The position numbers and the translations under genes are program-made. The notes under the pieces were generated by a model. It saw only the letters and a program-made list of their open reading frames with translations. It made no database searches and had not been told where the DNA came from. A DNA stretch of 64,000 nt, taken from an uncultured Planctomycetaceae bacterium (GTDB lineage: Bacteria; Planctomycetota; Phycisphaerae; SM23-33). The stretch lies in the NCBI GenBank assembly GCA_964631565.1, contig CAZVYJ010000011.1:182-64181 (forward strand), written 5' to 3'. Position 1 is the first letter of the stretch, and the number at the start of each line of letters is the position of its first letter. Below, one piece after another: positions 1 to 15,453 of this stretch.

Positions 1-2
1 CA

Positions 3-173
3 GACGGTAAATACCAAGTCGAAGGTACGTATCCTAACCTGTCTCTCGGCTATGGTAGCGTCATCGCACCGGTGGCAGCCGGCACATTTGTATATGATGC
101 AGTTCCCGATCCGGCGACACTGGCTCTCTTGAGTATGGGTGGTTTGGGCCTGCTGATTCGACGCAAGCGCTAA
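3..173 (+). CDS. 3' end of a PEP-CTERM-type protein (gene starts left of window); sorting motif reads VPDP instead of VPEP
   Basis: Frame open from base 3: ...FVYDAVPDPATLALLSMGGLGLLIRRKR*; hydrophobic stretch plus basic tail like the five PEP-CTERM tails downstream. Confidence 0.85.
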   Translation, partial: DGKYQVEGTYPNLSLGYGSVIAPVAAGTFVYDAVPDPATLALLSMGGLGLLIRRKR

Positions 174-221
174 AGATACCCGATTTGGGAGTTGAACAAG
201 CTCAGGGTTTCTCCGTGATAT

Positions 222-256
222 GCGGGCTGTCCTCAAGGGCAGCCCGTATTTTTATT
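222..256 (+). terminator. intrinsic terminator
   Basis: GCGGGCTGTCC-TCAA-GGGCAGCCCGT followed by ATTTTTATTT. Confidence 0.7.
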
Positions 257-407
257 TGCCCATCAAAACAATCTTAACTCTTGTTTGAAAGAACAGATAT
301 GTGAAATGGGAGGTGGGCAGGGGGATAGACGCCCAGTCTGATTTCTGGAGACCGGACCATCCGGCGATAAGTGTGAAACCAGGCTATTTTCATTGTTAAC
401 TTCTCTC

Positions 408-436
408 TTGACATTAGCGTCAATACAGGTTATTCT
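408..436 (+). promoter_or_regulatory. sigma70-type promoter of regulator 1
   Basis: TTGACA(408-413)-N17-TATTCT(431-436). Confidence 0.7.
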
Positions 437-485
437 ATCTATTAAGCTAACACATCAGAGTGCTTTTCTGAAAGGCTGTAACGCT

Positions 486-1538
486 TTGGACACTGTGGTT
501 AAGCATAAGAGTATAGTCAAGTCGCTTCGCGGCGATATATTGCGGGGTGTGTACGTTCCCGGCGGTCGCCTGCCGAGTCGCGCCCAGATAAGCCGCACCT
601 ATGGCGCCGGCATGGCGACGGTGCAGAAGGCTTTAGATACTCTTATCGAAGACGGTTTCGTTCATGCGAAAGCCGGGTCGGGCACGTTTGTTGTGGAGCG
701 TCCGCCGCACCTCTGCAATTATGCGATTTCAATACCTGAGGCCGAATTGTGGTCGTGTTATTACGACGCATTCAGGGAAGCCATGGGAGATGTCAGCTCC
801 AGCAAAGACATCGAATTTCGAGAGTATCTTACTTCGCGCGACGTCGCTTCCCGCCAGGGCATCAGGAATCTTTGCAGGGATTCGTCGCACAACAAACTCG
901 CTGGCATCATAGTGAGCGGCGATCCGACAGCCCTGGCGGATACCGGCATATTCAATAATCCCGCTGTTCCCTGCGTGGCGAACCAATTTGCCTACAATGT
1001 TCCATTTCCGAAAACCTGCCTTGATGACGAATCGTTCCTGAATCGCGCGATAGAGTTTCTTTCATCGCGAGGCCGGCGGCGAATAGCGCACCTGTTCATG
1101 GATTTCGAAGCGCGTCACATGGTTGACTTCGAAAACCAGATGAAACGCCTGAACGTGGAAGTCAGGCCTTACTGGGTCCAGTCAGTTCCGATGACCGCAT
1201 TGTTCCGTTCAGTAACGAATGTCGTTCACCTGCTGGTGCAGGCCGAGATGTACGGCGAGCGCCCCGACGCGCTGATTATCCATGACGACAACCTCATCGA
1301 CCATGCCATTGCGGGAATACTGGCAGCCGGCGTTCGCGTGCCGGAGAACATGGATGTCATTGTCAAATTCAACTTCCCGTCGCGTAGACGGAGCCTGCTG
1401 CCGATAACGCGGCTGGGCGTGGATCTGCGCGATCTGCTTAACAGCTGCATCGAAATCCTGGACAAGCAGCGCAATGGCGAGCCTGTCCCGGACAAAACCG
1501 GACTTCCGGCATTATTTGAACACGAGATAAGAAAATAA
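486..1538 (+). CDS. GntR-family regulator with LacI-type (periplasmic-binding-like) effector domain, paralog 1
   Basis: wHTH ...YVPGGRLPSRAQISRTYGAGMATVQKALDTLIEDGFVHAKAGSGTFV; C-terminal RRIAHL, PDALIIHDDNL, GVRVPE motifs. Start moved from 393 to TTG 486 (GTG 495 also possible) because the promoter lies inside the longer ORF and the paralogs start here. Confidence 0.85.
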   Translation: MDTVVKHKSIVKSLRGDILRGVYVPGGRLPSRAQISRTYGAGMATVQKALDTLIEDGFVHAKAGSGTFVVERPPHLCNYAISIPEAELWSCYYDAFREAMGDVSSSKDIEFREYLTSRDVASRQGIRNLCRDSSHNKLAGIIVSGDPTALADTGIFNNPAVPCVANQFAYNVPFPKTCLDDESFLNRAIEFLSSRGRRRIAHLFMDFEARHMVDFENQMKRLNVEVRPYWVQSVPMTALFRSVTNVVHLLVQAEMYGERPDALIIHDDNLIDHAIAGILAAGVRVPENMDVIVKFNFPSRRRSLLPITRLGVDLRDLLNSCIEILDKQRNGEPVPDKTGLPALFEHEIRK

Positions 1539-2386: not shown

Positions 2387-2410
2387 GCTCAGGATCGGGT
2401 TCCTCTGAGC
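2387..2410 (+). ncRNA. conserved 3'-UTR bulged hairpin motif, copy A
   Basis: GCTCAGGATCGGGTTCCTCTGAGC between PEP-CTERM stop and terminator. Confidence 0.55.
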
Positions 2411-2413
2411 GAG

Positions 2414-2447
2414 GCGGGTCGTCCCCTAAGGGGCGGCCCGCTTTTTT
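2414..2447 (+). terminator. intrinsic terminator
   Basis: GCGGGTCGTCCCC-TAA-GGGGCGGCCCGC-TTTTTT. Confidence 0.85.
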
Positions 2448-2578
2448 GTACTGTCGTTCATGGGGAAAATTACAGCAGGGCATCATCATAATGCAATATT
2501 TTAGAGTAAGTAACAGGCGGAAGAAGGTATTTGCCATAATAACGGGAATAACTATAGGTTTTCGGAGCAGTTTATAAC

Positions 2579-2634
2579 TTGACAGGAGAAAATTTTAAGT
2601 TATTCTATATCTATATTGAACATATCTAGAATAA
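2579..2634 (+). promoter_or_regulatory. sigma70-type promoter of regulator 2 with inverted repeat over the -10
   Basis: TTGACA(2579-2584)-N16-TATTCT(2601-2606); TTATTCTA(2600-2607)...TAGAATAA(2627-2634). Confidence 0.65.
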
Positions 2635-2660
2635 GTATCTGCTGATATCGAGAAAGTCGT

Positions 2661-3716
2661 ATGGCATTATCCGGAAAAGCCAAATATCAGAATGTGGTGT
2701 CCTCACTGAGGGACGGGATAGTTAAAGGCCTGTATCGTCCCGGGCATCAGCTGCCGACCCGTCCTGAGATGGTGGAGAAATTCGGCGTCAGCATTGCGAC
2801 GGTGCAGCGTGCGCTGGATACCTTATCTGACGATGGTTTCATCCGTGCTCGTGCCGGGTCTGGCACGTTTGTTGTTGATCGTCCGCCGCATCTCTGCAAT
2901 TACGCCATATCGATGCCCAAGTCGGGCCAGTGGTCCTGCTTCTTTGATTCGCTCAGAGGGGCCATGAAATGCGTGGGGCAGGACAAAGATATCAATTTCC
3001 GTGAATATATTACTTCGCGTGATGTGGGCGACAGGCAGGGTATAAGCGATCTTTACTCGGATGTGTTCGACAAGAAGCTTGCCGGAATCATTATAACCGG
3101 TGACCCGGCCGACCTGTACGGCACGGGTATTATGGAGAATAAGGCCGTTCCCTGCGTGGCGAACGTATCTACATTTGATGTGCCGTGCCCGAAGGTGTAC
3201 ACGCGTCTGGAAGCTTTTCTGGAGCGGGCGGTGGAATTTCTCGTGTCCCGCGGCCGACGGCGCATCGCGCACCTGTTCATGGACTTCGAAGCGCACCACG
3301 TCGCCGATTTTGAAGACCGCATGAGGCGCATGAATGTTGAAGTCCGGCCTTACTGGATACAGTCGGTCGCCATGTACGCGTTGTTCCGTTCCGCGACGAA
3401 TGTTGTCAATCTGCTGGCGCAGCTTGACGGCGACAAAAAGCCCGACGCCCTGATCATCCATGACGACAACCTTATCGAGCATGCCGTTGCGGGTCTGCTG
3501 GCGGCCGGTGTACGGGTGCCGGAAGAAATGGAAATCGTTGCGATGTTCAACTATCCGTCGCGCACCCACTCTTTGCTGCCCATGACGCGTCTGGGCCTCG
3601 ACATGCGCGAATCGCTGAAAAAAAGCGTCGAAATCCTGGACAAAATGCGCAATGGCGAGCCTGTCCCGGATGGAATCGAACTGAAAGTGAAGTTCGAACA
3701 CGAAATGGAGAAATAA
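2661..3716 (+). CDS. GntR/LacI-type regulator, paralog 2
   Basis: LPTRPEMVEKFGVSIATVQRALDTL wHTH; effector domain very similar to paralog 1. Confidence 0.9.
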   Translation: MALSGKAKYQNVVSSLRDGIVKGLYRPGHQLPTRPEMVEKFGVSIATVQRALDTLSDDGFIRARAGSGTFVVDRPPHLCNYAISMPKSGQWSCFFDSLRGAMKCVGQDKDINFREYITSRDVGDRQGISDLYSDVFDKKLAGIIITGDPADLYGTGIMENKAVPCVANVSTFDVPCPKVYTRLEAFLERAVEFLVSRGRRRIAHLFMDFEAHHVADFEDRMRRMNVEVRPYWIQSVAMYALFRSATNVVNLLAQLDGDKKPDALIIHDDNLIEHAVAGLLAAGVRVPEEMEIVAMFNYPSRTHSLLPMTRLGLDMRESLKKSVEILDKMRNGEPVPDGIELKVKFEHEMEK

Positions 3717-3793
3717 GAGTCGCCGTGACTCTTGGAGGCATTAAACAGGTTTATTTGACTTATTTTTTCCGGAGATTGAGAAAGGAGACTTTT

Positions 3794-4549
3794 ATGAGCT
3801 TGTATTTAAGAAGATTTCTACTGGCAGGCGTTCTGCTAGCCGTGGCGATGCCGGCAGCCGCGGACACACTGGTGCTGGGCGATCCGGCGTGGGCAGGCAC
3901 TCCTGCCGGCGCCATCGACGGCAAAATCGCTGATGCGTGCATGTGGGTCGGATGGGGTGAAGGCATGGGCCTTGGCACCGGCGTTCAGTTTGAAAGCGGC
4001 CCGTCTTATGTCAAGCACGTGCTTTGGTACTTCGACTTGGCCGGTGCGGGTATGCCGATCGGGCCGAACACAGTGATTGACAGCGTGCAGTTCAACGTTT
4101 CCGATGCCGGCGGCGGGCATGTGGCCCAGCCGGAAATCAATCTGTACGCACTGACGAAGGCCTGGACGGAAGCAGGCGAAACCTGGTACACCACGGGAAC
4201 CGGAACGGACTGGTCGACTCCCGGCGTAGGCGCAGGCGACATCATCGAGTCCTCCAAGGTGTCGATTACCACCATTGGAGCTGCCGATGCATGGGCCCGT
4301 TTCGACATTCCGGGCTTCGATTCGCTGATCCAGGCGTGGGCCAACGGCTCGATTACCAATTACGGTGCATTGATGGTGTATGCTGCTGAAGAAGGAGACG
4401 TGACAATGAACATGTGCTCCTCGCAGTATGCCTCGCACGTCAAGCCGTACCTGGTGGTTGAATATCATGTAGTGCCCGAGCCGGCGACTATGAGCCTTCT
4501 GGGCCTTGGCGGCCTGGGTATGCTGATCCGTCGCAAAAGGAGTATATAA
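3794..4549 (+). CDS. secreted PEP-CTERM protein, DNRLRE-like domain
   Basis: ATG 3794 after AGGAG; signal peptide almost identical to the 1617 gene; LWYFDL..VIDSVQF, LYALTKAWTE; VPEPATMSLLGLGGLGMLIRRKR. Confidence 0.85.
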   Translation: MSLYLRRFLLAGVLLAVAMPAAADTLVLGDPAWAGTPAGAIDGKIADACMWVGWGEGMGLGTGVQFESGPSYVKHVLWYFDLAGAGMPIGPNTVIDSVQFNVSDAGGGHVAQPEINLYALTKAWTEAGETWYTTGTGTDWSTPGVGAGDIIESSKVSITTIGAADAWARFDIPGFDSLIQAWANGSITNYGALMVYAAEEGDVTMNMCSSQYASHVKPYLVVEYHVVPEPATMSLLGLGGLGMLIRRKRSI

Positions 4550-4587
4550 GACGACCCCAACGCAGATTCGCAGTAAAAAAGCTTTGC

Positions 4588-4612
4588 GCTCAGAAGAAAG
4601 GTTCCTCTGAGC
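4588..4612 (+). ncRNA. conserved 3'-UTR bulged hairpin motif, copy B
   Basis: GCTCAGAAGAAAGGTTCCTCTGAGC. Confidence 0.55.
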
Positions 4613-4619
4613 AACCGAG

Positions 4620-4650
4620 GTGGCCGTCCCTCAGGGACGGCCGCTTTTTT
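4620..4650 (+). terminator. intrinsic terminator
   Basis: GTGGCCGTCCC-TCA-GGGACGGCCGC-TTTTTT. Confidence 0.85.
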
Positions 4651-4868
4651 ATACCACTATTACAGCATCGGGGTCGATATTCCAATCACCATGGATTTAC
4701 TATTATACAGCTTAAATCAAAAGAGAAATCCGTTTTTTGCAATTCAGTCGAACCCGGTTAACGATAAGAAGGTTTAATCAGCTAATATCAGTCTGCTGAA
4801 GTATTCGTGTGAATCCGGCGGTTCACGTGACGGGAACCCATATTTGAAAAACAAAAGGGAGCGACACG

Positions 4869-6863
4869 ATGAATCGAATCGCGGGAATTCAAGCCGGGAA
4901 GTTCAGACGGGTATCGTGGTATGCTGCCGCAGTCATAATTTTGATAATGGAAAGCGTGGTTATGGCAGGCGACTTGACGCTCAAGTACGATTCCAGCAAA
5001 TATCCTGAATTGAAAATGGGATATAACGACCTTAACGGTGACGGCAAGGCCGATACGCTGATTACCAGATGGAACGACAAAATTATCGCCTTTATCAGCG
5101 ACGGCGGGCAACTGCCGTGGAAGGCGGAGGACGAAAAGCAGGACTGGAACGCCTACTTCAACAAGGCGTACAACGTCGGCCAGGACCCGCCGGTGACATG
5201 GAACCCTGTAAGGGCCAGGTGGGGCGACTATACGATTCTGGTGGACCGCGACGGCGACGGCAGATTTGATTCCATCGGCGACTGGTGCTACAAGACATTC
5301 GACCTCAACAAAGACGGCTCGCCCGAGGCCGAGTACTATCATCTTTTCCCGGGGCACTACAGTAACAAGTTTCACATCAATTTCAGCGGCGAACGGGACA
5401 TGTCGTGGCTGGACTTCGGCGGCTTCTGCTACTGCCCTGACGAGCAGCGATACGTCAACGGCAGCCAGTACATCATGAACGTTCACGGCAACGGAATGTT
5501 CCTCAACAGCTACGCCCGGAATACACAGTGCGCGTGGGAAAATCCCATCGCATGGTATGACTTCGATTTCGACGGCCGAACCAACATGGTCATGCGGGCC
5601 GCGGATACCTTCTACGAGGACGGCAAGGATCACGTTTCCTACAGCGGCTGCCTGAGCGAGCTCGAGCTGGCGTTCGAGCTGAATTCGAACACCAGCGAGA
5701 AACGGTGGCACTCCCTGGACATGCAGTTGACGTTCTTCAACTACGACAGGGGCAAGGGGCTGGATTACAAATCCTTCACCGATGCGCTGGCCTTCATGAC
5801 GGGTCTTAAGGGTTCGGAGTTTCTCTCCGAGAATATGGCCGAGGCGAGGCTGCAGACCGTCCGCAGATATCTTCCTTACATGGACGGCTACAAAATCGGG
5901 ATGGATTTCGACGGCTGGGCCGGCGTATGGCTGCTGTTCGATGAAGACGATGACGACAACCGCTGGGAAGAAATGTTCTCCAGGCACGAGCCGGCCGATT
6001 GGCACGGCTACGCAGACCAAATCGGCGACCGCACCGAGATCGACAGGGACTACGGCGGCAAGGGCAAGCTTTACATCGCCAAATTTGACGGCCGCATTCA
6101 CCTGTTCCATGCGGAATTCGCCGTATGGGATGTCGATTGTCTCGCCATGTATAAGGGTGCGTGCGACAGGGGCGCTACCCCGGAGGGGCCGAACCCGCCG
6201 GCCGGTATTCGATATCCGCGCGTGAGATATTCCGACACCAACGGCAACGGTTTTATCGACAGGATTGAATATATGACCGTCGAATACGGCAAGGAAGGCG
6301 AAACCGAAAAAATCGACCGGGTCGTTTCGCTCCTGGATTACGCGGACGAGAAGAACCCCAAACCGGATGTGTGCGAACTGTTCGATCCTCGCGTGGACAC
6401 GAAAGTAACCGGCTGGACCGTCGCCAAATGGGACGGGAAGCCCTTCACGGCGAAGGATTTCAAGGGTACGCCCGTCAAGGCCGGCTTCGACAGGGTATAC
6501 CAGTTTTACGGCCGGGTCTGCGACGGCATGTGGAGCGACGCCGAAAAACTCTATAAAACCGCCAGGGACCTGGGCCTGAACCGTTCAGAGGACCTGGACA
6601 AGGAACTGAAAGACACGTACACCAAAGATGAACTCGCCGCGCTGAAAGTGCTGGACATACCCAAAGGGTACTCGCGGCACCTTTCCGGCAAGACCAGGCG
6701 GGAAAAATACAACAACGGCTACTGGCTTAAGGAAAAAGTTTTCGCGGACATCCTTGAGTATTCCTCGCTCGACAATCGCACGCTGGAGAAGTATTTTTAC
6801 ACCGGCAGGATCGATGAACTCTGCGAATACGTCAGGGCCAACTACAAGCCGCAGCAGAAATAA
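4869..6863 (+). CDS. hypothetical, probably exported protein with several DxDxDG calcium-binding-like motifs
   Basis: 664 aa ORF with GGGAG SD, signal-like N-terminus, motifs DLNGDGKAD, DRDGDGRFD, DLNKDGSPE, DFDFDGRTN, DTNGNGFID. Confidence 0.75.
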   Translation: MNRIAGIQAGKFRRVSWYAAAVIILIMESVVMAGDLTLKYDSSKYPELKMGYNDLNGDGKADTLITRWNDKIIAFISDGGQLPWKAEDEKQDWNAYFNKAYNVGQDPPVTWNPVRARWGDYTILVDRDGDGRFDSIGDWCYKTFDLNKDGSPEAEYYHLFPGHYSNKFHINFSGERDMSWLDFGGFCYCPDEQRYVNGSQYIMNVHGNGMFLNSYARNTQCAWENPIAWYDFDFDGRTNMVMRAADTFYEDGKDHVSYSGCLSELELAFELNSNTSEKRWHSLDMQLTFFNYDRGKGLDYKSFTDALAFMTGLKGSEFLSENMAEARLQTVRRYLPYMDGYKIGMDFDGWAGVWLLFDEDDDDNRWEEMFSRHEPADWHGYADQIGDRTEIDRDYGGKGKLYIAKFDGRIHLFHAEFAVWDVDCLAMYKGACDRGATPEGPNPPAGIRYPRVRYSDTNGNGFIDRIEYMTVEYGKEGETEKIDRVVSLLDYADEKNPKPDVCELFDPRVDTKVTGWTVAKWDGKPFTAKDFKGTPVKAGFDRVYQFYGRVCDGMWSDAEKLYKTARDLGLNRSEDLDKELKDTYTKDELAALKVLDIPKGYSRHLSGKTRREKYNNGYWLKEKVFADILEYSSLDNRTLEKYFYTGRIDELCEYVRANYKPQQK

Positions 6864-6910
6864 ATACGGGCAGTCCACAGGGCGGCGCGGCACATATCGA
6901 GGAGAATAAA

Positions 6911-7930
6911 ATGGATAAGGTTCGTCTCGGAATCATCGGATACGGAACCATGGGGGAGATTTACTCTGAAGGCATAGCCGAGTTTCACAATGCCGAGGTA
7001 GCAGCCGTTGCGGACCATAACCCGGAACACCTTGCGAGCGCCCTGCAGAAGCACGGCTGCGATGTGTTCGAGGATTACCGCGATATGTACTCGTGGGGAA
7101 AGCTGGACGCGGTGGTAATCATACTGCCGGACTTCCTGCACAAAGAGGCTGTCATCGAGGCGGCCGCCGCGGGACTGCACATTCTCGTGGAGAAACCTTT
7201 CGCCATGTCGGTTCAGGATGCGCTCGAGATGGTCGAGGCCGTCCGCAGGGCGAAAGTCAAATGCATGATCGAGTTCATGAATCGCTGGAGCGCGCCGTTT
7301 GTGAAGGCGAAGGAGCTGGCCGACGCCGGCAAGTTCGGATTCGTGACATCCGTTTCCGGCGATTTGAACGATTCCATATTTGTGCCCACCAGAATGCTGC
7401 GATGGTCCGCCCGCAGCACGCCCGGCTGGTTCCTCATGTGCCACACATTCGACCTGGCTACGTGGATTACCGGAAAGAAGCCGGCCAGCGTCTTCGCCAC
7501 GGCAGCGAAGAAGATTCTTGCGGCAAAGGGCATCGACACATACGACGCGATTGAAGCCTTGGTCAATTTCACCGACGGCTCCATCGGCCGATTCACCAAC
7601 AACTGGGTTCTGCCCGAGGCGATACCGCTGCTTTATGAACTCAAGCTGCGCATCGTCGGCTCAGACGCCGCGATTGATATCAACACCTCCGACCAGCAGC
7701 TGCACTATTTCGACCAGAATCGCTATGAGCACACATTCAACGCATGGGGCAAGGTGCTCGGCCGGCCTTACGGGCACTGCTATGACATGCTGCGAACTTT
7801 CGTCGATTGCATCCAGCGCGACCTGCCCGTGCCGATACCGGCCGAGACCGGGCTGAAAAATACCATTTTCATGGAAGCCGTGCATAAATCGGTTGAAACG
7901 GGCAAACCCGTCAGCATTGAAAATTACTGA
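6911..7930 (+). CDS. Gfo/Idh/MocA family NAD(P)-dependent oxidoreductase
   Basis: VRLGIIGYGTMG Rossmann motif, HILVEKPFA motif, GAGGAG SD. Confidence 0.9.
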   Translation: MDKVRLGIIGYGTMGEIYSEGIAEFHNAEVAAVADHNPEHLASALQKHGCDVFEDYRDMYSWGKLDAVVIILPDFLHKEAVIEAAAAGLHILVEKPFAMSVQDALEMVEAVRRAKVKCMIEFMNRWSAPFVKAKELADAGKFGFVTSVSGDLNDSIFVPTRMLRWSARSTPGWFLMCHTFDLATWITGKKPASVFATAAKKILAAKGIDTYDAIEALVNFTDGSIGRFTNNWVLPEAIPLLYELKLRIVGSDAAIDINTSDQQLHYFDQNRYEHTFNAWGKVLGRPYGHCYDMLRTFVDCIQRDLPVPIPAETGLKNTIFMEAVHKSVETGKPVSIENY

Positions 7931-8183
7931 GCAGTCTTACGTAAGTTTGTTTCCCGTCTGGTGGCCTTCCTAGGCCGCCGGAATTGCAGAAAGCTACCAA
8001 CCACCCCGAAAAGCGGTTTTCGAGGGTTTCCATGCAAGTTCTGCTCTGAGGCTGAGTATCCCTTGATAGCCTCCAGCTCGCGACATCTCTTTCATCTCCT
8101 TGATTCAAATGATGTTATGTTCATAACTATCGCGAGTTTTGAACTGGTATCATTTTATTTACAAGTTCGGAGTATTTTCGCTC

Positions 8184-8239
8184 TTGACTCATTGCTGGCT
8201 TATGGTAATCTAGATTACATAGTTGGAAATCTAGATTAC
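8184..8239 (+). promoter_or_regulatory. promoter of regulator 3 with tandem palindromic operator
   Basis: TTGACT(8184-8189)-N16-TAATCT(8206-8211); perfect palindrome GTAATCTAGATTAC (8205-8218) and near copy GAAATCTAGATTAC (8226-8239), 21 bp apart. Confidence 0.7.
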
Positions 8240-8274
8240 ACTTGCCGGCAACAGGATTAGTGGGAAATACATAA

Positions 8275-9342
8275 ATGGTAGTAGGTGAAAAAGGTAAATA
8301 TCTGGAAGTCGTTTCCGCTCTGCGCAGCAGCATCCTCGACGGTGTGTACAAGCCAAGCAGCAAACTTCCTACCCGCTCGGAGATGGTGGCGGAGTTTGGT
8401 GTCAGCAACGCCACTATTCAAAGAGCTCTTACCAGGCTGGCGAATGACGGTTTTGTTTTCGCCCGCCCGTCCGGCACGTTTGTTGCGGAGTGCCCGCCGC
8501 ATTTGTGCAACTACGGGATGGTGACTCCCGTCACCTCGCAGTGGTCGCTGCTGCACACAGCCGTTCGCAGGGCGGCCGGCATAGTGCAGAAAGGCGGCGA
8601 TATCCGGTTCAATGAGTACATCACTTCTTCTGAAGTTGCGGCCAGGGAAGATGTGATACGCCTGAACAGGGACGTCACCAGCCATTGTCTCGGCGGGCTG
8701 ATTATCCTGGGCGATTACGCCATGCATGATATTGAAGGCACGCCGGCCCTCGAGCGTAAAAATTTCCCGCGCGTGCGTATACATCCTTTGCCGGAATCTT
8801 CCATTCCTGTTGTTTGCCTGGACGTGACCGGTTCGTTTATTCCGAAAGCGACGGAATACCTGACGTCAAGGGGCCACCGGCGGATTGCACATCTGCGATT
8901 GATTTCAGAAGTCAATTGGCGGAAGGAATTCGATGCGGCCCTGAAAAGGACCGGCATCGAGATCAGGCCGTACTGGGTGCAGTCGGTTTACGCCAGGGCC
9001 ATAGATGAAACGACCACAAGCGTCATATCCCTGCTGATGCAGTTGGAAGGGGACAAGCGCCCCGACGCATTGATAATTCACGACGACAACCTTGTCGAGC
9101 TTGCCGTAGGCGGGCTGCTGGCGGCCGGCGTCAAGGTGCCCGACGACCTGGAAATAGTCGCGCACTCAAACTATCCATCGCAGGCGCCCAGCGTTCTGCC
9201 GATGGCGCGGCTGGGCCTCGACTGCCGCATGTTCCTGAAAAAGTGCGTGGAAGTGATAGAACTGCAGCGCAGCGGACAAACCCCTCCGGCGAAGACGAAT
9301 ATCCCGGCGGTGTTTGAGGACGAACTTGCGGATGAAGTCTGA
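8275..9342 (+). CDS. GntR/LacI-type regulator, paralog 3
   Basis: LPTRSEMVAEFGVSNATIQRALTRL wHTH; RPDALIIHDDNL. Confidence 0.9.
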   Translation: MVVGEKGKYLEVVSALRSSILDGVYKPSSKLPTRSEMVAEFGVSNATIQRALTRLANDGFVFARPSGTFVAECPPHLCNYGMVTPVTSQWSLLHTAVRRAAGIVQKGGDIRFNEYITSSEVAAREDVIRLNRDVTSHCLGGLIILGDYAMHDIEGTPALERKNFPRVRIHPLPESSIPVVCLDVTGSFIPKATEYLTSRGHRRIAHLRLISEVNWRKEFDAALKRTGIEIRPYWVQSVYARAIDETTTSVISLLMQLEGDKRPDALIIHDDNLVELAVGGLLAAGVKVPDDLEIVAHSNYPSQAPSVLPMARLGLDCRMFLKKCVEVIELQRSGQTPPAKTNIPAVFEDELADEV

Positions 9343-9461
9343 ATAAATCGCGTTTCGAGCGTGATTGGTCGCTTTCGTGAAGGAAAAGAAGGGATCGGAT
9401 AACAGTTCGAAGGAATATTGAAAAGTCATTTCCTGGCTGCTTCCAGAAAGGAGAAGAAAAG

Positions 9462-10616
9462 ATGAGAAGGGTTAATGTTCTATTGGCATTTTTTACAATG
9501 CTGGCTCTGGCTGTTCCGGCGGCTGCCGCGTGGGTCGATAACACTGCGTCCTGGACGGCACAGGGCCTTTCCGGCGGTTTGTTGATCACGGATACCGACA
9601 ACAATACGATGTATAACATCAGCGGCAGCACGATCCGGAGCTACGATGCCGGCACCGACACATGGACGACGCTGACCTCCGCGAGCGGCGGCGGTTACAC
9701 AGGCGAATGGTGTGTGGGTGCTTACGCACAGGGCAAAATCCTGCTGAAAAGCCACAATCACAACTACATCCAGATTTATGACATCGCCACGGACAGCTGG
9801 TCCAACAGCACGCTGCCCAGCACCACTTACAGTTACGGCCACGGCCAGGGTGCGGTTTACAACCCCGCCGACGGCAAGTTCTATACCTTCTGGACTTCCT
9901 ATTCGCCAGGCTACGAGCCTGTAGGAGCCGCATATGATGTGGCGACAGGCACGTGGAGTGCAGACACAGCCTATGCCAATCAGGGGCCGAGGTATCTGTG
10001 GGGCCGCATGCAGTCGGTCACCGTGGGCACCACGAATTACTTCCTGAGAGATGAAAATTATTTTCTTGGCGACAGGAACAGTGGAGATGGAACTATCAGA
10101 CTGGGTTCATATGATTTGACTCAGGGCATTCCGACAGACCAAAGCACCTTGAATTACACCATCCTGTCGTTCGACATGGGCGGTGGTGCGGAACTGCATT
10201 ACAATGGTTTCACTCACCTGGGAGAAACCTACTACTCCGGTGGCGGCGGCTGGCCGGCTGCTTTTTATGACGATGCCGGGGTTGCTTTCGGCACCCAGAT
10301 GATGGCCGTCGATGGTACAGACATCTATATTGTGGGTGAATGTTTCACATGGTGGGGCTGCACCGATCCGCCGGAAGGTAGCGAACATCTTGAGGTTGTC
10401 GTTTATCATACCGCCACAGGCACGTGGGAAAACTTCGAAGACGTGCCGTGGTCCGGAAATGCCTACCGCAACCATACTGTAACGGTTTGCAACGGTGTTC
10501 TGTACGTTCAGGACGGCAGCGAGTTCTATGCCTACAACCTAGTTCCCGAGCCGGCGACTGTGTCGCTGCTGGGCCTCGGCGGTTTGGGACTCCTTATCCG
10601 TCGCAGACACAGATAA
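9462..10616 (+). CDS. secreted PEP-CTERM protein, Kelch-like beta-propeller
   Basis: signal peptide; repeated YDxxTDTW / YDIATDSW / YDVATGTW / YHTATGTW blades; VPEPATVSLLGLGGLGLLIRRRHR. Confidence 0.85.
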   Translation: MRRVNVLLAFFTMLALAVPAAAAWVDNTASWTAQGLSGGLLITDTDNNTMYNISGSTIRSYDAGTDTWTTLTSASGGGYTGEWCVGAYAQGKILLKSHNHNYIQIYDIATDSWSNSTLPSTTYSYGHGQGAVYNPADGKFYTFWTSYSPGYEPVGAAYDVATGTWSADTAYANQGPRYLWGRMQSVTVGTTNYFLRDENYFLGDRNSGDGTIRLGSYDLTQGIPTDQSTLNYTILSFDMGGGAELHYNGFTHLGETYYSGGGGWPAAFYDDAGVAFGTQMMAVDGTDIYIVGECFTWWGCTDPPEGSEHLEVVVYHTATGTWENFEDVPWSGNAYRNHTVTVCNGVLYVQDGSEFYAYNLVPEPATVSLLGLGGLGLLIRRRHR

Positions 10617-10642
10617 ACTGAATATTCTGCAACAGACTTAGT

Positions 10643-10666
10643 GCTCAGAATCGGGTTCCTCTGAGT
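10643..10666 (+). ncRNA. conserved 3'-UTR bulged hairpin motif, copy C
   Basis: GCTCAGAATCGGGTTCCTCTGAGT. Confidence 0.55.
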
Positions 10667-10670
10667 ATGG

Positions 10671-10702
10671 TGTGGCCGTTCTTTACGGGGCGGCCACATT
10701 TT
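10671..10702 (+). terminator. intrinsic terminator
   Basis: TGTGGCCGTTC...GGGCGGCCACA-TTTT. Confidence 0.75.
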
Positions 10703-10750
10703 ATTGCGCGAAATCCCAATTTGTAGGACAATTATCTGAAAACATTCCCC

Positions 10751-10805
10751 TTGACAGCCTTGTAGTTACACATTATTCTATATATCAGAAAGATAAACAG
10801 AATAA
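10751..10805 (+). promoter_or_regulatory. sigma70-type promoter of regulator 4 with inverted repeat
   Basis: TTGACA(10751-10756)-N17-TATTCT(10774-10779); TTATTCT(10773-10779)...AGAATAA(10799-10805). Confidence 0.7.
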
Positions 10806-10820
10806 GTATTGGAAAATTCG

Positions 10821-11942
10821 ATGGAACTAACCGGCAAGGCCAAATACGAAGACGTCGTCCACAGATTGCGAAGCGATATTGTGAAAGGCGTTTATTCACC
10901 GGGGAACCGGCTGCCGAATCGATCTGATATCGGCCAGCAGTTCGGCGTGGGGATGGCCACAGTTCAGAAAGCGCTCGACATGCTGACTGAGGATGGTTTT
11001 ATACGTGCGCGGGCCGGAGCTGGAACTTTCGTGGTGGACAACCCGCCGCACCTTTCTGATTACGCGCTGATTATCCCCGCCGCTAGCCTGTGGTCGCGTT
11101 GCTATTCTACATTGCGAGCGGCGGCGACGATTGTCGCCGATGGGGAAAAGGTGAAATTCAAGGAATATAATCCTTCCCGCGATATTGGCAACCGGTCTGA
11201 AATTATCAGATTGTCCAGCGACGTCGTGAATCACAGGCTGGCCGGTATTATCGTTGCGGGTTTCGCCGACGAACTCGTAGGGACGCCGGCCATTGAGATG
11301 CCCGGCATTCCACGCGTGCTTCATCAGCCCATGCCGGGATTTGATTACCCTGTTGTGTGCCTTGACGGTTTTCTGGACAAGGCGACCGAATATCTCAAAT
11401 CTCGCGGCCGGAAACGGGTAGCGCACCTTTGCCTGGATTTTGCATGGACCGAAATAGATGCGTTCATCCAGCAATTGAAACAGAGGCTGGACGACGTCAG
11501 AAATTATTGGGTTCAGCCGCTACGCATAGGTGAGAGATTCCACGGCACCAAGCACGTGGTTGATCTGCTCATGCAACTGGAAGGGGACAAGCGCCCTGAC
11601 TCGCTGATAATCCACGATGACAACTTGGTAGACCAGGCGGTAGCGGGTCTGCTGGCGGGGGGCATAAAAGTACCGGACGAAATAGAGGTCGTAGCCATGG
11701 CGAACTTCCCGTCTTTTCAGCAGTCCGCCTTGCCCATCAAGCGGATCGGCTATGACTTCCGGCAGGTGCTCGAGAAATCGCTCGAAATCATGCAGATGGA
11801 GCGTTCGGGACAGACGCCGCCGAGACTGACGAAACTTACGGCGACGTATGAAGAAGACGTTGACTACGGGCCAGCATATGCAGGGCCTGATGAGTTGGAG
11901 ATGAGAGGCATCATTTTATCTGGACCCAAAACGGGAGAATGA
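10821..11942 (+). CDS. GntR/LacI-type regulator, paralog 4
   Basis: MELTGKAKYEDVV.. start aligns with paralog 2; LPNRSDIGQQFGVGMATVQKAL wHTH. Confidence 0.9.
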   Translation: MELTGKAKYEDVVHRLRSDIVKGVYSPGNRLPNRSDIGQQFGVGMATVQKALDMLTEDGFIRARAGAGTFVVDNPPHLSDYALIIPAASLWSRCYSTLRAAATIVADGEKVKFKEYNPSRDIGNRSEIIRLSSDVVNHRLAGIIVAGFADELVGTPAIEMPGIPRVLHQPMPGFDYPVVCLDGFLDKATEYLKSRGRKRVAHLCLDFAWTEIDAFIQQLKQRLDDVRNYWVQPLRIGERFHGTKHVVDLLMQLEGDKRPDSLIIHDDNLVDQAVAGLLAGGIKVPDEIEVVAMANFPSFQQSALPIKRIGYDFRQVLEKSLEIMQMERSGQTPPRLTKLTATYEEDVDYGPAYAGPDELEMRGIILSGPKTGE

Positions 11943-11954
11943 AAGGAGAAAAAC

Positions 11955-12536
11955 ATGTTCTTGAGATTCAAGAAACCACTGATGCTGTGGTTTGGGCTGG
12001 TTGCCCTGATTGCATTTGTGTCGCCGGCTGGAGCATCGACGCTTATTCCGCAGAGCCAGCTAACCGCGTGGGCGAGCACTCTGTTTGACGGGATATATCC
12101 CGGCTCAAACACGGTTGACGGCAACGTCGGAACAATATGGGCGGCCGGCAACACAGACAATTCGTATCTGCGGATTGACCTCGGCGCTACCTACACTGTT
12201 GATATGTTCACGATCGAAGGCAGGGCTGACAACACAGACCGTCCGAACGCCTTCAAACTGTGGGTAACCGACACGCTGACCGACGGAGATATCACGGGGT
12301 GGACGGACCCGGTGCTGGAATCCAATTTCCTCAGTCAGCAGGCGGTGCAGGAGATTAATTTCACCCCGACTTCCGGCCAGTATATGTATGTGTTGCTGGT
12401 CGGTACCCCTTACAACTACAGCGGCATGTCCAGGGGCTGCATTGCCGAGTTCAACGCTTACCAGGTGCCCGAGCCGGCGACTATGTCACTCCTCGGCCTC
12501 GGCGGCCTGGGACTGTTTATCCGTCGCAGGAAGTAA
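11955..12536 (+). CDS. secreted PEP-CTERM protein, discoidin/F5-8 type C (CBM32-like) domain
   Basis: signal peptide; NTVDGNVGTIW...YLRIDLGATYTVDMFTIEGR is typical of discoidin domains; VPEPATMSLLGLGGLGLFIRRRK. Confidence 0.85.
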   Translation: MFLRFKKPLMLWFGLVALIAFVSPAGASTLIPQSQLTAWASTLFDGIYPGSNTVDGNVGTIWAAGNTDNSYLRIDLGATYTVDMFTIEGRADNTDRPNAFKLWVTDTLTDGDITGWTDPVLESNFLSQQAVQEINFTPTSGQYMYVLLVGTPYNYSGMSRGCIAEFNAYQVPEPATMSLLGLGGLGLFIRRRK

Positions 12537-12554
12537 ATGAGTCTTCTGCTGTTT

Positions 12555-12578
12555 GCTCAGAACCGGGTTCCTCTGAGC
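12555..12578 (+). ncRNA. conserved 3'-UTR bulged hairpin motif, copy D
   Basis: GCTCAGAACCGGGTTCCTCTGAGC. Confidence 0.55.
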
Positions 12579-12587
12579 ATTTTCAAA

Positions 12588-12621
12588 GTGGCCGTTCCGT
12601 TACGGGACGGCCACGTTTTTT
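12588..12621 (+). terminator. intrinsic terminator
   Basis: GTGGCCGTTCCG-TTA-CGGGACGGCCAC-GTTTTTT. Confidence 0.85.
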
Positions 12622-12635
12622 ATCGAATTCCTTAC

Positions 12636-12800
12636 TGAAGACCACGGGTTTACCCGTGGATGAATGCCGCCGACAACGGCAGTTGCCGTTGTCGGCTCCT
12701 GAATCCCGGTGTGTGTGAGTAAAATGCACATACGCCCGGATTCAGGTCAGCTGCGACTGCAGCTGTGAAGGTAAGTACCCCGGCTTTAGCCGGGGGAATC
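12636..12800. mobile_element. putative non-autonomous IS200/IS605-type (palindrome-associated) element
   Basis: Five consecutive hairpins; the terminal ones CCACGGGT-TT-ACCCGTGG and CCCCGGCT-TT-AGCCGGGG resemble IS200/IS605 subterminal palindromes; no ORF; ends approximate. Confidence 0.5.
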
Positions 12801-12990
12801 TATGCAATTTTACCATCAGCTCGAATATCTGACAGGTTCCATGCTTTTCTGACTGCTGCACTTTGATCCCCCCTCAAAAAAACATGCGGCGCGCAACTCA
12901 TTCTTGATTCAGAGGTTTTGTTCAATGACCTCCCGGGTTTTTAATGCCTGTCATTTTGCACAAAAACGATAGGCACACAAATTTTTCCAA

Positions 12991-13018
12991 TTGACTTTTT
13001 CTAAGAATCAATTATTAT
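12991..13018 (+). promoter_or_regulatory. sigma70-type promoter of regulator 5
   Basis: TTGACT(12991-12996)-N16-TATTAT(13013-13018) in an AT-rich tract. Confidence 0.55.
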
Positions 13019-13047
13019 AAATTAAAGTGTTATTGACTTAGAACATA

Positions 13048-14121
13048 ATGTCAGGAATGTATTCAGTGACACATTCTCCTAGAGCCAAATATCACGATCT
13101 GGCGGCGACACTCAAAAGTGAGATTATTGAGGGTGTGTATTCTCCTGGCCATCGATTGCCTACGAGGCTGCAGATGGTTCAGCAGTATGGTGTGAGCGTT
13201 GCTACGGTGCAGCGGGCTCTCAATACGCTCCTTGACGATGGTTTCATCCGTGCGAAATCGCGAGCGGGGACATTCGTCGTGGACAATCCTCCTCACCTGT
13301 CGAATTTCGGTCTGGTCTTGTCGGCCGAGGGACAGTGGTCGCAATATTACCTGTCGATTCTTGAAGCGGCGAAAATGGTAGGTCTTGAGGAAAATGCTTA
13401 TCTGAAGGCTTATTTTACGTCAAGGCAGGTGGGGTTGCGGCAGGGGCTTGTAAGCTTGTGCGGTGACATATCCAACCACAGGCTTGGCGGGTTGATTATA
13501 GCCACGCCGACTGACAATCTGCATGACACGCCAGTGGTGCAGAAAAAGGATATGCCGCGAGTTCTTTTGTGCCCCTCAAATGAGAATGATATCCCGATTA
13601 TCAAGATAGACATGAATTCCTTCATGGACAAGGCTGTGGAGTATTTTTATTCCCGCGGCCGGCGACGCATCGCACACCTGTGCCTCGATTCGCTGTACAG
13701 GGTTGATAACGAGATAGATGACACGGTTCAGAAGCGGGGTATTGAGTACAGGCCTTACTGGGTGCAACTGGTCGGTTCCGGCCCCACCTTCAGAGGCGTG
13801 GCAAGCGTGGTCAATCTTCTCATGCACCTGGAAGGGGAGAATCGTCCGGATGCCATGCTCATTTACGACGACAACCTTGTCGAACACGTGGTCGGCAGCC
13901 TGATGAAGTTCGGCTTCAAGGTCCCGGACGACCTTGAGATTATCACGATGTGCAACTATCCGTCGCCCGTTTCGAGTCCGCTGCCGGTCAAAGATCTTGG
14001 GCTGGATTGCCGCATGGTTCTCAAAAAAGCCGTCGAGCTTATTGAAATGCAGCGGCTTGGACAGGAAGTGCCGTTAGTGGTTAAAGTGCCGGCCCTCTTT
14101 GATGAAGAAGTTGATCTGTAG
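13048..14121 (+). CDS. GntR/LacI-type regulator, paralog 5
   Basis: LPTRLQMVQQYGVSVATVQRALNTL wHTH; RPDAMLIYDDNL. Confidence 0.9.
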   Translation: MSGMYSVTHSPRAKYHDLAATLKSEIIEGVYSPGHRLPTRLQMVQQYGVSVATVQRALNTLLDDGFIRAKSRAGTFVVDNPPHLSNFGLVLSAEGQWSQYYLSILEAAKMVGLEENAYLKAYFTSRQVGLRQGLVSLCGDISNHRLGGLIIATPTDNLHDTPVVQKKDMPRVLLCPSNENDIPIIKIDMNSFMDKAVEYFYSRGRRRIAHLCLDSLYRVDNEIDDTVQKRGIEYRPYWVQLVGSGPTFRGVASVVNLLMHLEGENRPDAMLIYDDNLVEHVVGSLMKFGFKVPDDLEIITMCNYPSPVSSPLPVKDLGLDCRMVLKKAVELIEMQRLGQEVPLVVKVPALFDEEVDL

Positions 14122-14321
14122 TAATAATCGAGCATCGAACGAGGATGTAGTAATGCAGAAAGGAGGATGGTGATTTTAATTCGAAAGCCGTTCCCATTCA
14201 GAAGGGAAGTTTTGTGAATGTGCTTGTGGAGAATGAGCAGGGGAATCGCATGTAACGAAATTTAGAAATTTAGTGCTTAGCACAATTCATTTCTCTCTGG
14301 AGAAGAAAGGAGCTGTTCATT

Positions 14322-15365
14322 ATGAAAAGATTTAGAATTTTGCTAGGAGTCCTGTCTCTATCGGTGCTAGTTGTGCCGGCAAACGCTGGCTGGACGGAAG
14401 TGACCTCCAGCTGGAACGCCCAGGGTGTTGGAGATGGCTGGGGTCTGGTGTCTGACGGAACCACGCTGTATGCCTTCAACAACACCTCAGCCAAGGTGTA
14501 CGACGCCGCCACCGATACGTGGTCGGCTTTGGCATCGGCAACGAAAACGGTTCATGCTGCCGGCGACTCTAACGGCACGCAGGTTTATTACGACGACGGA
14601 AAGTTTTACTTCAGGACGCACGGCGGCAATGGAAGCTATATCAGCATCTACGATATAGCCAACAATTCGTGGAACCAGCCGGACATCGAACTCGGCAGCT
14701 ACAGCCCGTGTAACTATTCGCAAGGCACGGTTTATGATCCTACAACCGGTACACTGTGGTCGATATGGACGAGTTGGCAGGGCGGTACCGAATACCTCGG
14801 CTACAACTCGTATGACACCACGACCGGAACCTTTGGCACCGCCGCCGGCGGCACATGGGGATCGCCTGACAATTTCTCGGGCAAGATGCGGTTCGGCAAC
14901 AATCGGCCCGGCGTGATTGTCGATCTTGACGGCACCTATTACTACTACAAGCTGTCAGACCAGGGCACAAGTCCGTACATGCAGCGTGTAGCATTCGGCT
15001 GGGATGACCCGACGGAAGCAACGACGGAGACCCTGGCGCAGTTGACCGGCAATAGCACCAGTCTCGGCGACAGCGGCGCATGGGGCACCAGGCAGTTGGC
15101 CGTTTTGGGCACGGACATTTATGTCACCGGTGCTGACACGTCAGGCTTTTTCGCCGTGTATCATTGCGATACCAACGAGTGGGAAATACTCGAGTCCTAT
15201 AACAACGGCAGCGGCGGATATCGTACCCACACCATGGCCATTGCAGACGGCGTAGTTTACGTAGAAGACGGCAGCCAGTTCTTTGCCTACTCGATTCCCG
15301 AGCCGGCAACTATGTCACTCCTCGGTCTCGGTGGTCTCGGCTTGCTTATTCGCCGGAAAAGATAA
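14322..15365 (+). CDS. secreted PEP-CTERM protein, Kelch-like beta-propeller, paralog of 9462-10616
   Basis: AGGAG SD; YDAATDTW, YISIYDIANNSW, YRTHTMAIADGVVYVEDGSQFFAYSIPEP align with the 9462 protein. Confidence 0.85.
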   Translation: MKRFRILLGVLSLSVLVVPANAGWTEVTSSWNAQGVGDGWGLVSDGTTLYAFNNTSAKVYDAATDTWSALASATKTVHAAGDSNGTQVYYDDGKFYFRTHGGNGSYISIYDIANNSWNQPDIELGSYSPCNYSQGTVYDPTTGTLWSIWTSWQGGTEYLGYNSYDTTTGTFGTAAGGTWGSPDNFSGKMRFGNNRPGVIVDLDGTYYYYKLSDQGTSPYMQRVAFGWDDPTEATTETLAQLTGNSTSLGDSGAWGTRQLAVLGTDIYVTGADTSGFFAVYHCDTNEWEILESYNNGSGGYRTHTMAIADGVVYVEDGSQFFAYSIPEPATMSLLGLGGLGLLIRRKR

Positions 15366-15386
15366 GCCATTGTAGACCACATTTTT

Positions 15387-15410
15387 GCTCAGAACCGGGT
15401 TCCTCTGAGC
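15387..15410 (+). ncRNA. conserved 3'-UTR bulged hairpin motif, copy E
   Basis: GCTCAGAACCGGGTTCCTCTGAGC. Confidence 0.55.
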
Positions 15411-15419
15411 ATTTTCAAA

Positions 15420-15453
15420 GTGGCCGTTCCGTTACGGGGCGGCCACGTTTTTT
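15420..15453 (+). terminator. intrinsic terminator
   Basis: GTGGCCGTTCCG-TTA-CGGGGCGGCCAC-GTTTTTT. Confidence 0.85.

Follow-up and report, generated by a model that had tools for sequence, protein, structure and literature searches.

The window analysed here is a stretch of 64,000 nt from an uncultured Planctomycetaceae bacterium (contig CAZVYJ010000011.1), and the subject of this work is a short hairpin motif that lies behind the PEP-CTERM genes of the window. Each of these genes stands second in a two-gene module, behind a gene for an AraR-like regulator, in which a GntR winged-helix domain is fused to a LacI-type periplasmic-binding-protein-like sugar domain. The PEP-CTERM proteins carry varied lectin-like cargo domains (CBM96/disaggregatase repeat, F5/8 type C, Kelch-like, and one without a Pfam match). 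The modules form tandem arrays in the same orientation, and each module ends in the palindrome formed by the motif. The rest of the window is housekeeping, with glmS, MatE, TatD, UbiA, the rpoBC region, and two tRNAs. RpoC was 67% identical to Planctomycetota, the best value among the matches listed (species representatives), and the closest PEP-CTERM tails in public data carry the annotation Phycisphaerae.

Occurrence of the motif in the window and in relatives

A sequence-only reading of the window had pointed out a repeated element, GCTCAGRA-N(3-5)-GGTTCCTCTGAGY, between the PEP-CTERM stop codons and their terminators. The repeat proved to be real and non-random, with five copies compared to 0 expected by chance. 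A pattern search with GCTCAGR-N4-12-TCCTCTGAG returned five matches, all on the + strand and all at the positions listed for copies m1 to m5 in Table 1, and no match was obtained in 100 dinucleotide-preserving shuffles. The 12-mer GGTTCCTCTGAG matched exactly at the same five sites. The gene upstream of each copy encodes a product ending in the Pfam PEP-CTERM domain PF07589, and a regex scan of all six frames over the 64 kb found no further PEP-CTERM-like C-terminus. The copies begin 18-38 nt past the stop and end 0-9 nt before the stem of a strong intrinsic terminator, which is the spacing originally described. A covariance model run with filters off found only these five copies in the window (29-37 bits), as had been claimed; the next independent match scored 14.7 bits and was inside a coding region.

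The 3' untranslated regions (UTRs) of m4 and m5 (12555-12621 and 15387-15453) are near-identical from motif to terminator, with one base different over ~70 nt, and were counted as one independent copy. The genes themselves differ. The identity suggests that only the 3' end was recently duplicated or converted, and it is exactly inside this repeat that the Logan contig L331 breaks off.

The degenerate relative GCTCAGGGTTTCTCC, first seen by the sequence-only reading, was found behind the sixth, truncated PEP-CTERM gene. It keeps the GCTCAG and GGTTYCTC blocks, and it cannot form the hairpin because the variable middle and the 3' stem arm are missing. A 13-mer of this remnant, CTCAGGGTTTCTC (window 201-213), recurs at L336 9766-9778 behind another PEP-CTERM-like gene. 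In L336, the 13-mer stands ahead of the insertion variant of the motif described below, and the last stretch of the coding sequence (GAAGAAACCTGAG) is complementary to it. The recurrence may be either a second conserved form or a coincidence.

Table 1. Modules, motif copies, and terminators in the window
Feature	Position	Strand	Remark
Sixth PEP-CTERM gene, 3' end only	1..173	+	tail AVPDPATLALLSMGGLGLLIRRKR; cut by window start
Degenerate relative GCTCAGGGTTTCTCC	200..214	+	3' of truncated PEP-CTERM gene ending at 173
Intrinsic terminator behind truncated module 0	220..257	+	
AraR-like regulator, module 1	393..1538	+	GntR winged helix-turn-helix (wHTH) + Peripla_BP_3; Pfam
PEP-CTERM protein 1, 245 aa	1617..2354	+	CBM96/disaggregatase-repeat cargo domain + PEP-CTERM tail; Pfam
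Motif copy m1, GCTCAGGATCGGGTTCCTCTGAGC	2387..2410	+	32 nt past stop at 2354; 36.9 bits
Intrinsic terminator, module 1	2411..2447	+	15-bp G+C-rich stem, then T6; abuts motif
AraR-like regulator, module 2	2661..3716	+	promoter TTGACA-N16-TATTCT at 2579-2606
PEP-CTERM protein 2, 274 aa from GTG start	3725..4549	+	cargo domain without Pfam match
Motif copy m2, GCTCAGAAGAAAGGTTCCTCTGAGC, 25 nt, variant loop	4588..4612	+	38 nt past stop at 4549; 29 bits
Intrinsic terminator, module 2	4617..4650	+	4 nt past motif
AraR-like regulator, module 3	8275..9342	+	
PEP-CTERM protein 3, 384 aa	9462..10616	+	Kelch-like cargo domain; Pfam
Motif copy m3, GCTCAGAATCGGGTTCCTCTGAGT, closing pair G·U	10643..10666	+	26 nt past stop at 10616; 33.6 bits
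Intrinsic terminator, module 3	10669..10705	+	2 nt past motif
AraR-like regulator, module 4	10809..11942	+	promoter 10751-10779
PEP-CTERM protein 4, 193 aa	11955..12536	+	F5/8 type C (discoidin) cargo domain; Pfam
Motif copy m4, GCTCAGAACCGGGTTCCTCTGAGC	12555..12578	+	18 nt past stop at 12536; 35.5 bits
Intrinsic terminator, module 4	12588..12621	+	9 nt past motif
AraR-like regulator, module 5	13048..14121	+	promoter 12991-13018
PEP-CTERM protein 5, 347 aa	14322..15365	+	Kelch-like cargo domain; Pfam
Motif copy m5, same sequence as m4	15387..15410	+	21 nt past stop at 15365
Intrinsic terminator, module 5	15420..15453	+	9 nt past motif

Relatives were reached by a protein search with one regulator, followed by the contigs encoding the closest matches. 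The search of relatives suggested earlier was fruitful and yielded nine further copies: five on Logan contigs of DRR321573, two in the NCBI metagenome-assembled genome (MAG) GCA_964403905.1, and two on a Logan contig of SRR32473248. The two further Logan contigs of DRR321573 are probably from the same organism as the window, since window 3838-12581 is present in this run as an exact copy. GCA_964403905.1 contributed three contigs, with an m1 orthologue 83% identical in protein, and SRR32473248 one contig of a more distant organism, with an orthologous regulator 76% identical. The nine copies read GCTCAGAATTAGGTTCCTCTGAGC, GCTCAGAATCAGGTTCCTCTGGGC, GCTCAGGATCGGTTCCTCTGAGC, GCTCAGTAATGGTTCTTCCTGAGC, GCTCAGAAAAGGTTCCTCTGGGC, GCTCAGAATCGGGTTCCTCTGAGC, GCTCAGAAATGGTTCCTCTGGGC, TTTCAGAGATTGGTTCCTCTGGGC, and GCTCGGAATGGGTTCATCTCCTCTGAGC, the last being an insertion variant. 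Each is found 11-72 nt past a PEP-CTERM stop and directly before a terminator.

This gives 14 copies in at least three organisms, all single, in sense orientation, and downstream of PEP-CTERM stops. A covariance model built from the copies found exactly 14 sites (21-38 bits) in ~166 kb of clade DNA and none behind a non-PEP-CTERM gene there, so the exclusive tie to PEP-CTERM 3' ends extends to all model matches, including those in relatives. A random distribution over the genome had been named as a finding that would speak against the motif; the copies instead occur only behind PEP-CTERM genes and on the sense strand. Such a consistent context and orientation across genomes is expected of a structured cis-regulatory RNA motif. 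The 16 PEP-CTERM 3' ends in the clade comprise 13 with the canonical motif, 1 with the insertion variant, 1 with the decayed remnant, and 1 without the motif.

Wider searches found no copies outside this clade. An exact-pattern scan of the GTDB species representatives, among which the motif-bearing clade is not represented, gave 93 matches, all unrelated (Collinsella and Cloacimonadota terminators, and coding regions). The same type of scan in metagenomes gave at least 120 matches, with chance matches only among those listed. In 650 kb of other Planctomycetes-Verrucomicrobia-Chlamydiae (PVC) loci from GTDB representatives, chosen for related regulators or similar tails, the covariance model found nothing at E<1. 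The regulators at PVC loci outside the clade are at most 38% identical, and there is no motif behind their PEP-CTERM genes. The more distant JGI homologues L340, L424, and L425 also have no motif. One match in IMG/VR was dismissed as chance, being inside a coding region and without a terminator. The element is confined to a narrow clade and is tightly context-specific.

As the sequence-only reading had supposed, the motif is new to Rfam: in Rfam 15, no family reached its gathering threshold for the motif, and only the two tRNAs passed in the window. With E values up to 10 allowed, the motif region matched sbrA with 23.4 bits (gathering 45, E=0.51) and STnc250 with 19.8 bits (gathering 42). Both matches were rejected as chance-level and driven by the terminator. 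A full-text literature search found nothing linking PEP-CTERM to RNA motifs, hairpins, or terminators.

Other hairpins were seen behind PEP-CTERM genes outside the clade. Five MAGs of Kiritimatiellia have an orthologous PEP-CTERM gene with a TAA stop, and a small hairpin of the form UC..N..GA comes directly behind it, before an A-rich linker and then a terminator (L135 1338-1392, L136 2597-2651, L141 796-848, L142 2576-2631, and L149 2576-2624). The inner pairs vary by genome (UCACCC/GGGAUGA, UCCUGG/CAGGA, UCGC/GCGA, UCCUU/AAGGA, and UCC/GGA). The two-hairpin 3' architecture is the same as in the window clade, and the sequence is unrelated. L425 also has a hairpin directly past the stop. In another Planctomycetota MAG, two paralogous PEP-CTERM genes have in common a conserved 3' UTR with GCGGAGRACGTTCMTCGCAGCC (L137 1548-1650 and 2439-2540), which bears a loose likeness to the window motif (AGAAC...GTTCCTC) and scores below the model threshold.

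Conservation and fold of the motif

Conservation was assessed over 75 non-orthologous copy pairs, using the adjacent 20 tail codons for comparison and counting third positions where the amino acid was the same. The synonymous third positions were 45-48% identical, the first and second (non-synonymous) positions were 88% identical, and the 21 alignable positions of the motif were 89% identical. The motif is thus conserved far above the neighbouring neutral sequence, as the sequence-only reading required of a functional element. The stop-to-motif spacers were not alignable among these copies. A 24-nt stretch as constrained as the protein, with flanks free to change on both sides, is unlike what duplication or a gene-conversion tract would leave behind; it indicates purifying selection on the motif sequence itself and not a relic of duplication. 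Since its conservation is about as strong as that of protein-coding sequence, the motif very likely has a function at the mRNA 3' end, as an element that had not been described before.

Orthologous pairs show the same at closer range. For the close orthologues m1 and L335, the entire transcribed 3' UTR is conserved and the similarity collapses right past the terminator. For m3 and L336, the spacers (26 and 11 nt) cannot be aligned and the terminator differs, while GGTTCCTCTG is the same in both and every change in the stem either preserves a pair or exchanges it for another. The terminator stems vary freely with compensatory changes, those of m2 to m5 having a common theme, GGCCGTYCC/GGGRCGGCC. 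Across the copies, the spacing to the terminator is tight (0-10 nt) and that to the stop is loose (11-72 nt).

A neutral explanation would be that the motif is a relic of a 3' cassette of tail, UTR, and terminator copied with module duplication, or a selfish repeat similar to repetitive extragenic palindromic (REP) elements. The modules are clearly paralogous, the m2 to m5 terminators have their common theme, and m4 and m5 are recent duplicates, all of which would fit. The difference between motif and neighbouring neutral sites next to unalignable spacers does not fit, and neither does the conservation of the motif across at least three organisms while terminators and spacers change. Unlike REP elements, the motif was never found behind non-PEP-CTERM genes in the clade DNA, and IMG/VR gave no real match. 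We consider this explanation very improbable. The REP and bacterial interspersed mosaic elements (BIMEs) of enterobacteria are also short imperfect palindromes in the 3' UTR between stop and terminator, and REPs can stabilise the upstream mRNA. However, they occur in hundreds of copies next to unrelated genes, in both orientations and often as inverted pairs, with a 5' GTAG-type tetranucleotide and a link to RAYTs (REP-associated tyrosine transposases). In contrast to the dispersed copies of REP/REPIN families, 14 of 14 copies here are single and in fixed sense orientation behind PEP-CTERM genes.

The structure first proposed for the motif was a bulged hairpin with a GCUCA/UGAGC lower stem, a CUC bulge, and a GAAY/GUUC upper stem. 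The calculated energies do not support this fold. In every copy, the favoured fold is a plain 7-bp stem, GCUCAGA/UCUGAGC, with a loop of 9-10 nt, which is 2.3-5.4 kcal/mol more stable than the bulged one, and the pairs of the bulged fold have a probability of ~0 in the ensemble. For most copies, the probability of the sixth and seventh pairs of the plain stem is at least 0.9; the two copies that have G at position 7 show a competing, register-shifted GGA/UCC extension. Toward its 5' side the loop contains a variable segment of 1-3 nt and one variable base; its 3' part, GGUUCC, is nearly invariant, as are both stem arms. The word invariant, used in the sequence-only reading, is too strong because one copy reads TTCTTCCTGAGC and another has a 5-nt insertion. 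In the minimum-free-energy structures, hairpin and terminator both form without competition and give a stable two-hairpin 3' end.

Transitions were found at five positions of the stem (C2>U, A5>G, A7>G, A22>G, and C24>U), counting as many as eight independent events. Every one produces a G·U pair on the sense strand, where the antisense strand would have A·C, and 82 of 84 cells are paired in sense against 74 of 84 in antisense. Under a strand-symmetric binomial null, p ranges from ~0.03 for five events to 0.004 for eight. The argument for RNA from sense-strand G·U pairs, which had been made on the window copies, therefore holds and becomes stronger with more copies, as the transitions at all five positions are wobble-compatible. 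This pattern lends modest but real support to selection on the sense-strand RNA.

Three likenesses of the motif sequence were set aside. Pairing of the motif with the conserved VPEP codons (GTTCCCGAGCC, which resembles the 3' half of the motif) was dropped since other copies use CCG GAA CCG/CCT and still have a canonical motif. An anti-Shine-Dalgarno role was dropped since the PEP-CTERM ribosome-binding sites, AAAGGAG, are not complementary to UUCCUCU. A likeness to the tRNA D-arm/T-loop and the 16S rRNA 5' end (GCUCAGAAU, GGUUC) was judged coincidental.

The conserved block could also belong to a family of 3'UTR-derived small RNAs (sRNAs). Ribonuclease cleavage in the A/U-rich spacer would free an RNA of 65-75 nt, containing hairpin and terminator, from each PEP-CTERM mRNA; the invariant loop and 3' arm (GGUUCCUCUG) would be the common seed, and the output of all modules would sum to one signal. 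The size and the two-hairpin, U-tailed architecture fit such an RNA, and the conserved bases lie in the predicted open loop. The 3' UTR block is also more conserved than synonymous sites, as in the known 3'UTR-derived sRNAs CpxQ and DapZ. However, no conserved promoter or processing site was found upstream of the motif, where the spacers cannot be aligned, and pairing in the stem would tie up half of the putative seed. A GAGGAAC complement does not occur on the + strand of the window, and AAAGGAG, the Shine-Dalgarno sequence of the PEP-CTERM genes, is no match either; the span searchable for targets was ~170 kb of clade DNA. Hfq/ProQ-class sRNAs from 3' UTRs (CpxQ, DapZ, SroC, and MicL) are alike in having a conserved 3' UTR block that shares the mRNA terminator and in their similar size and two-hairpin shape. 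They are single-locus RNAs with defined seeds, targets, and chaperones, whereas here at least 10 paralogous loci per genome have the same block, and no target or processing site was identified. We know of no sRNA chaperone in Planctomycetota. Taken together, an sRNA family seems unlikely.

Module promoters and exchange of cargo domains

The module promoters are sigma-70-like (TTGACA-N16/17-TATTCT) and lie upstream of the regulator gene. The regulator promoters have palindromes or direct repeats specific to the module, for example AATCTAGATTAC twice; TTATTCTA..N19..TAGAATAA; and GTATTCTGAATAC..GGAATAC. These promoter-repeat regions are at 8180-8274, 2579-2660, and 10751-10808 in the window, 2350-2433 and 4460-4527 in L332, and 9920-10000 in L336. 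They differ between modules and are probably the operators of the AraR-like regulators. The regulator paralogues are 38-61% identical, and the wHTH domains are their most conserved part. In module 1, the listed TTG start of the regulator open reading frame (ORF) is upstream of its own promoter-like site at 408-436, and the GntR domain starts at residue 39. Because the promoter-like site is inside the listed ORF, the true start is probably downstream of 393, near 495.

A transcription factor, for example the AraR-like regulators themselves, might bind the palindrome GCTCAGA-N10-TCTGAGC as a DNA operator or roadblock. The inverted repeat is a perfect 7+7 with about one helical turn between the half-sites, and the conservation of the wHTH domains would fit. 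Several features make this a very doubtful explanation. The operator would be expected to be the palindrome or direct repeat that each module has at its own promoter, whereas one and the same 3' motif recurs in all modules. Its conserved core is asymmetric in having GGTTCC on only one side, and the changes in the two half-sites lack symmetry as well. Between ~90 and 420 bp separate the motif from the next promoter, and it lacks the GT-N-AC core typical of GntR operators.

The module of m3 and its orthologue in L336 show how the PEP-CTERM genes vary. Their regulators are 76% identical and have the same promoter repeat, and the cargo domains are unrelated, so that the PEP-CTERM proteins have only the signal peptide (~22 aa) and the sorting tail in common. 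At the DNA level, the two loci (window 8201-9520 and 10542-10720; L336 9927-11242 and 11964-12122) are homologous up to ~20 codons into the gene, just beyond the signal peptide, and again from the PEP-CTERM tail into the 3' UTR. The intervening ~1 kb, which codes for the mature cargo domain, shows no homology, so the cargo domain was swapped within fixed frames of signal peptide and tail. Between modules 2 and 3, the array also contains a 664-aa ORF without a Pfam match (window 4869-6863) and then a GFO/IDH/MocA oxidoreductase gene, with no motif behind either.

Cargo exchange raises the possibility that the motif is an anchor for recombination, with the conserved 3' block and the tail-coding DNA providing the homology or recognition site for exchange of cargo domains or whole modules. 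Some indirect support comes from the orthologous modules with unrelated cargo, in which homology resumes at the tail and 3' UTR. The same-orientation tandem arrays with a palindrome at the end of each module and the near-identical 70-nt 3' end of m4 and m5 would fit as well. However, the adjoining synonymous sites of the tail are near saturation and the spacers are not alignable, which argues that no ongoing conversion tract surrounds the motif. With its 24 nt, the motif is barely long enough for homologous recombination, no recombinase adjoins the array (the neighbours are GlmS, MatE, TatD, and UbiA), and the tight terminator spacing would be unexplained. The wobble-only changes are strand-specific, which a duplex DNA site would not predict.

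The closest analogue of such an anchor is the Sma/Cla 3' repeat of the Neisseria pilin loci, which, like integron attC sites, is a conserved non-coding 3' element on each member of a variable array; cargo exchange occurs here too. The motif is far shorter, has no recombinase nearby, and has a substitution pattern that favours single-stranded sense RNA. By inspection, it also does not match the attC core sites, as GTTCCTC is not GTTRRRY (R') and TCAGAAC is not RYYYAAC (R''). attC sites are 57-141 bp long and have a neighbouring IntI integrase, in contrast to the 24-nt motif in an array flanked by housekeeping genes. A recombination anchor is, in our judgement, unlikely but a serious rival.

Proposed role at the 3' end of PEP-CTERM transcripts

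The sequence comparisons establish a genuine hairpin motif in the 3' UTR that had not been described before, that is restricted to one clade, and that is specific to PEP-CTERM gene modules; an RNA function for it is plausible. We infer that the motif is transcribed and acts as RNA through a bound factor, and it is roughly an even call that it is a clade-specific, sequence-constrained, cis-acting hairpin in the 3' UTR of AraR-like regulator and PEP-CTERM transcripts, recognised by one common putative factor. The hairpin and the intrinsic terminator 0-10 nt downstream would give each module mRNA the same two-hairpin 3' end. The hairpin would be the recognition site for one common trans-acting factor, probably a protein, which might protect the transcript from 3' decay, direct its processing, or exert coordinated post-transcriptional control over a PEP-CTERM regulon. 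A recognition site appears the most likely role because the hairpin sequence, and not mere pairing, is held constant while the terminator drifts freely.

Two other roles at the RNA level are argued against by the position of the motif. The varying distance from the stop speaks against a role in translation termination or recoding, and the absence of overlap with the terminator against an antitermination switch of the ribonucleic antiterminator (RAT) or ANTAR type. The RAT of BglG-SacY and the ANTAR two-hexaloop are also sequence-conserved small hairpins directly 5' of an intrinsic terminator in several operons. However, their place is in a 5' leader or an intergenic stretch, where they share sequence with the 5' arm of the terminator, so that the two structures are mutually exclusive. 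Here a gap of 0-10 nt separates hairpin and terminator, the two co-fold, and they stand at the operon end, and we do not place the motif in these classes.

Several observations weigh against a cis-acting RNA hairpin. The covariation across genomes that was looked for was not found: 0 of 7 pairs changed on both sides, with one-sided G·U changes at 5 of 7. Pairing statistics showed no excess over shuffles. Because there are no compensatory double substitutions, conservation and the wobble changes are all that the structure draws on, and the hairpin alone is not unusually stable (z -1.1 to -2.8). The motif is also a DNA palindrome, which, together with cargo swapping, fits a role at the DNA level. 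A PEP-CTERM gene of the most distant relative has only an unrelated hairpin, and one copy in the window has decayed, so the motif is dispensable for at least some PEP-CTERM genes. Lastly, the clade is narrow, all sequences are from MAGs or metagenomic contigs, and PEP-CTERM membership and regulator-module membership are confounded in the data.

The only cis element described for PEP-CTERM genes is the proteobacterial site, a 17-nt motif 1 with a sigma-54 -24/-12 promoter upstream of the gene, associated with PrsR/PrsK/PrsT (Haft et al. 2006, PMC1569441); the PrsR/sigma-54 site is limited to Proteobacteria (PMC1569441). Both that site and the present motif are conserved non-coding sequences on most PEP-CTERM genes of a lineage, implying regulon-wide control. 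Theirs, in contrast, is an upstream DNA enhancer/promoter, and here a hairpin stands downstream of the stop and adjoins the terminator. The present clade belongs to Planctomycetota and has sigma-70-like promoters and AraR-like regulators, and its motif is not a member of the proteobacterial family.

A more far-reaching proposal, which we regard as a long shot, is that all PEP-CTERM mRNAs of the clade bear one 3' tag, and that a dedicated factor reads it and couples the fate of the transcripts to the exosortase/cell-envelope machinery. The tag would then be a membrane/exosortase 'zip code', or the RNA would be a multicopy 3'UTR-derived sRNA or sponge with a summed level that reports total PEP-CTERM demand. 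If true, either would have no described precedent as a post-transcriptional layer for exosortase substrates or as a gene-family-wide 3' tag of such kind in Planctomycetota, where RNA-based regulation is, to our knowledge, almost unexplored. Few surface-protein families of environmental bacteria have expanded as much as the PEP-CTERM/exosortase substrates. A downstream element that is under selection, regulon-wide, and absent from other genes would point to coordinated post-transcriptional control or a dedicated recombination system for these proteins, and its 24 nt provide a compact handle for pull-down of the presumed partner. The loci also present modular units of a sugar-sensor regulator and a lectin-like surface protein, whose cargo domains are exchanged within fixed frames of signal peptide and sorting tail.

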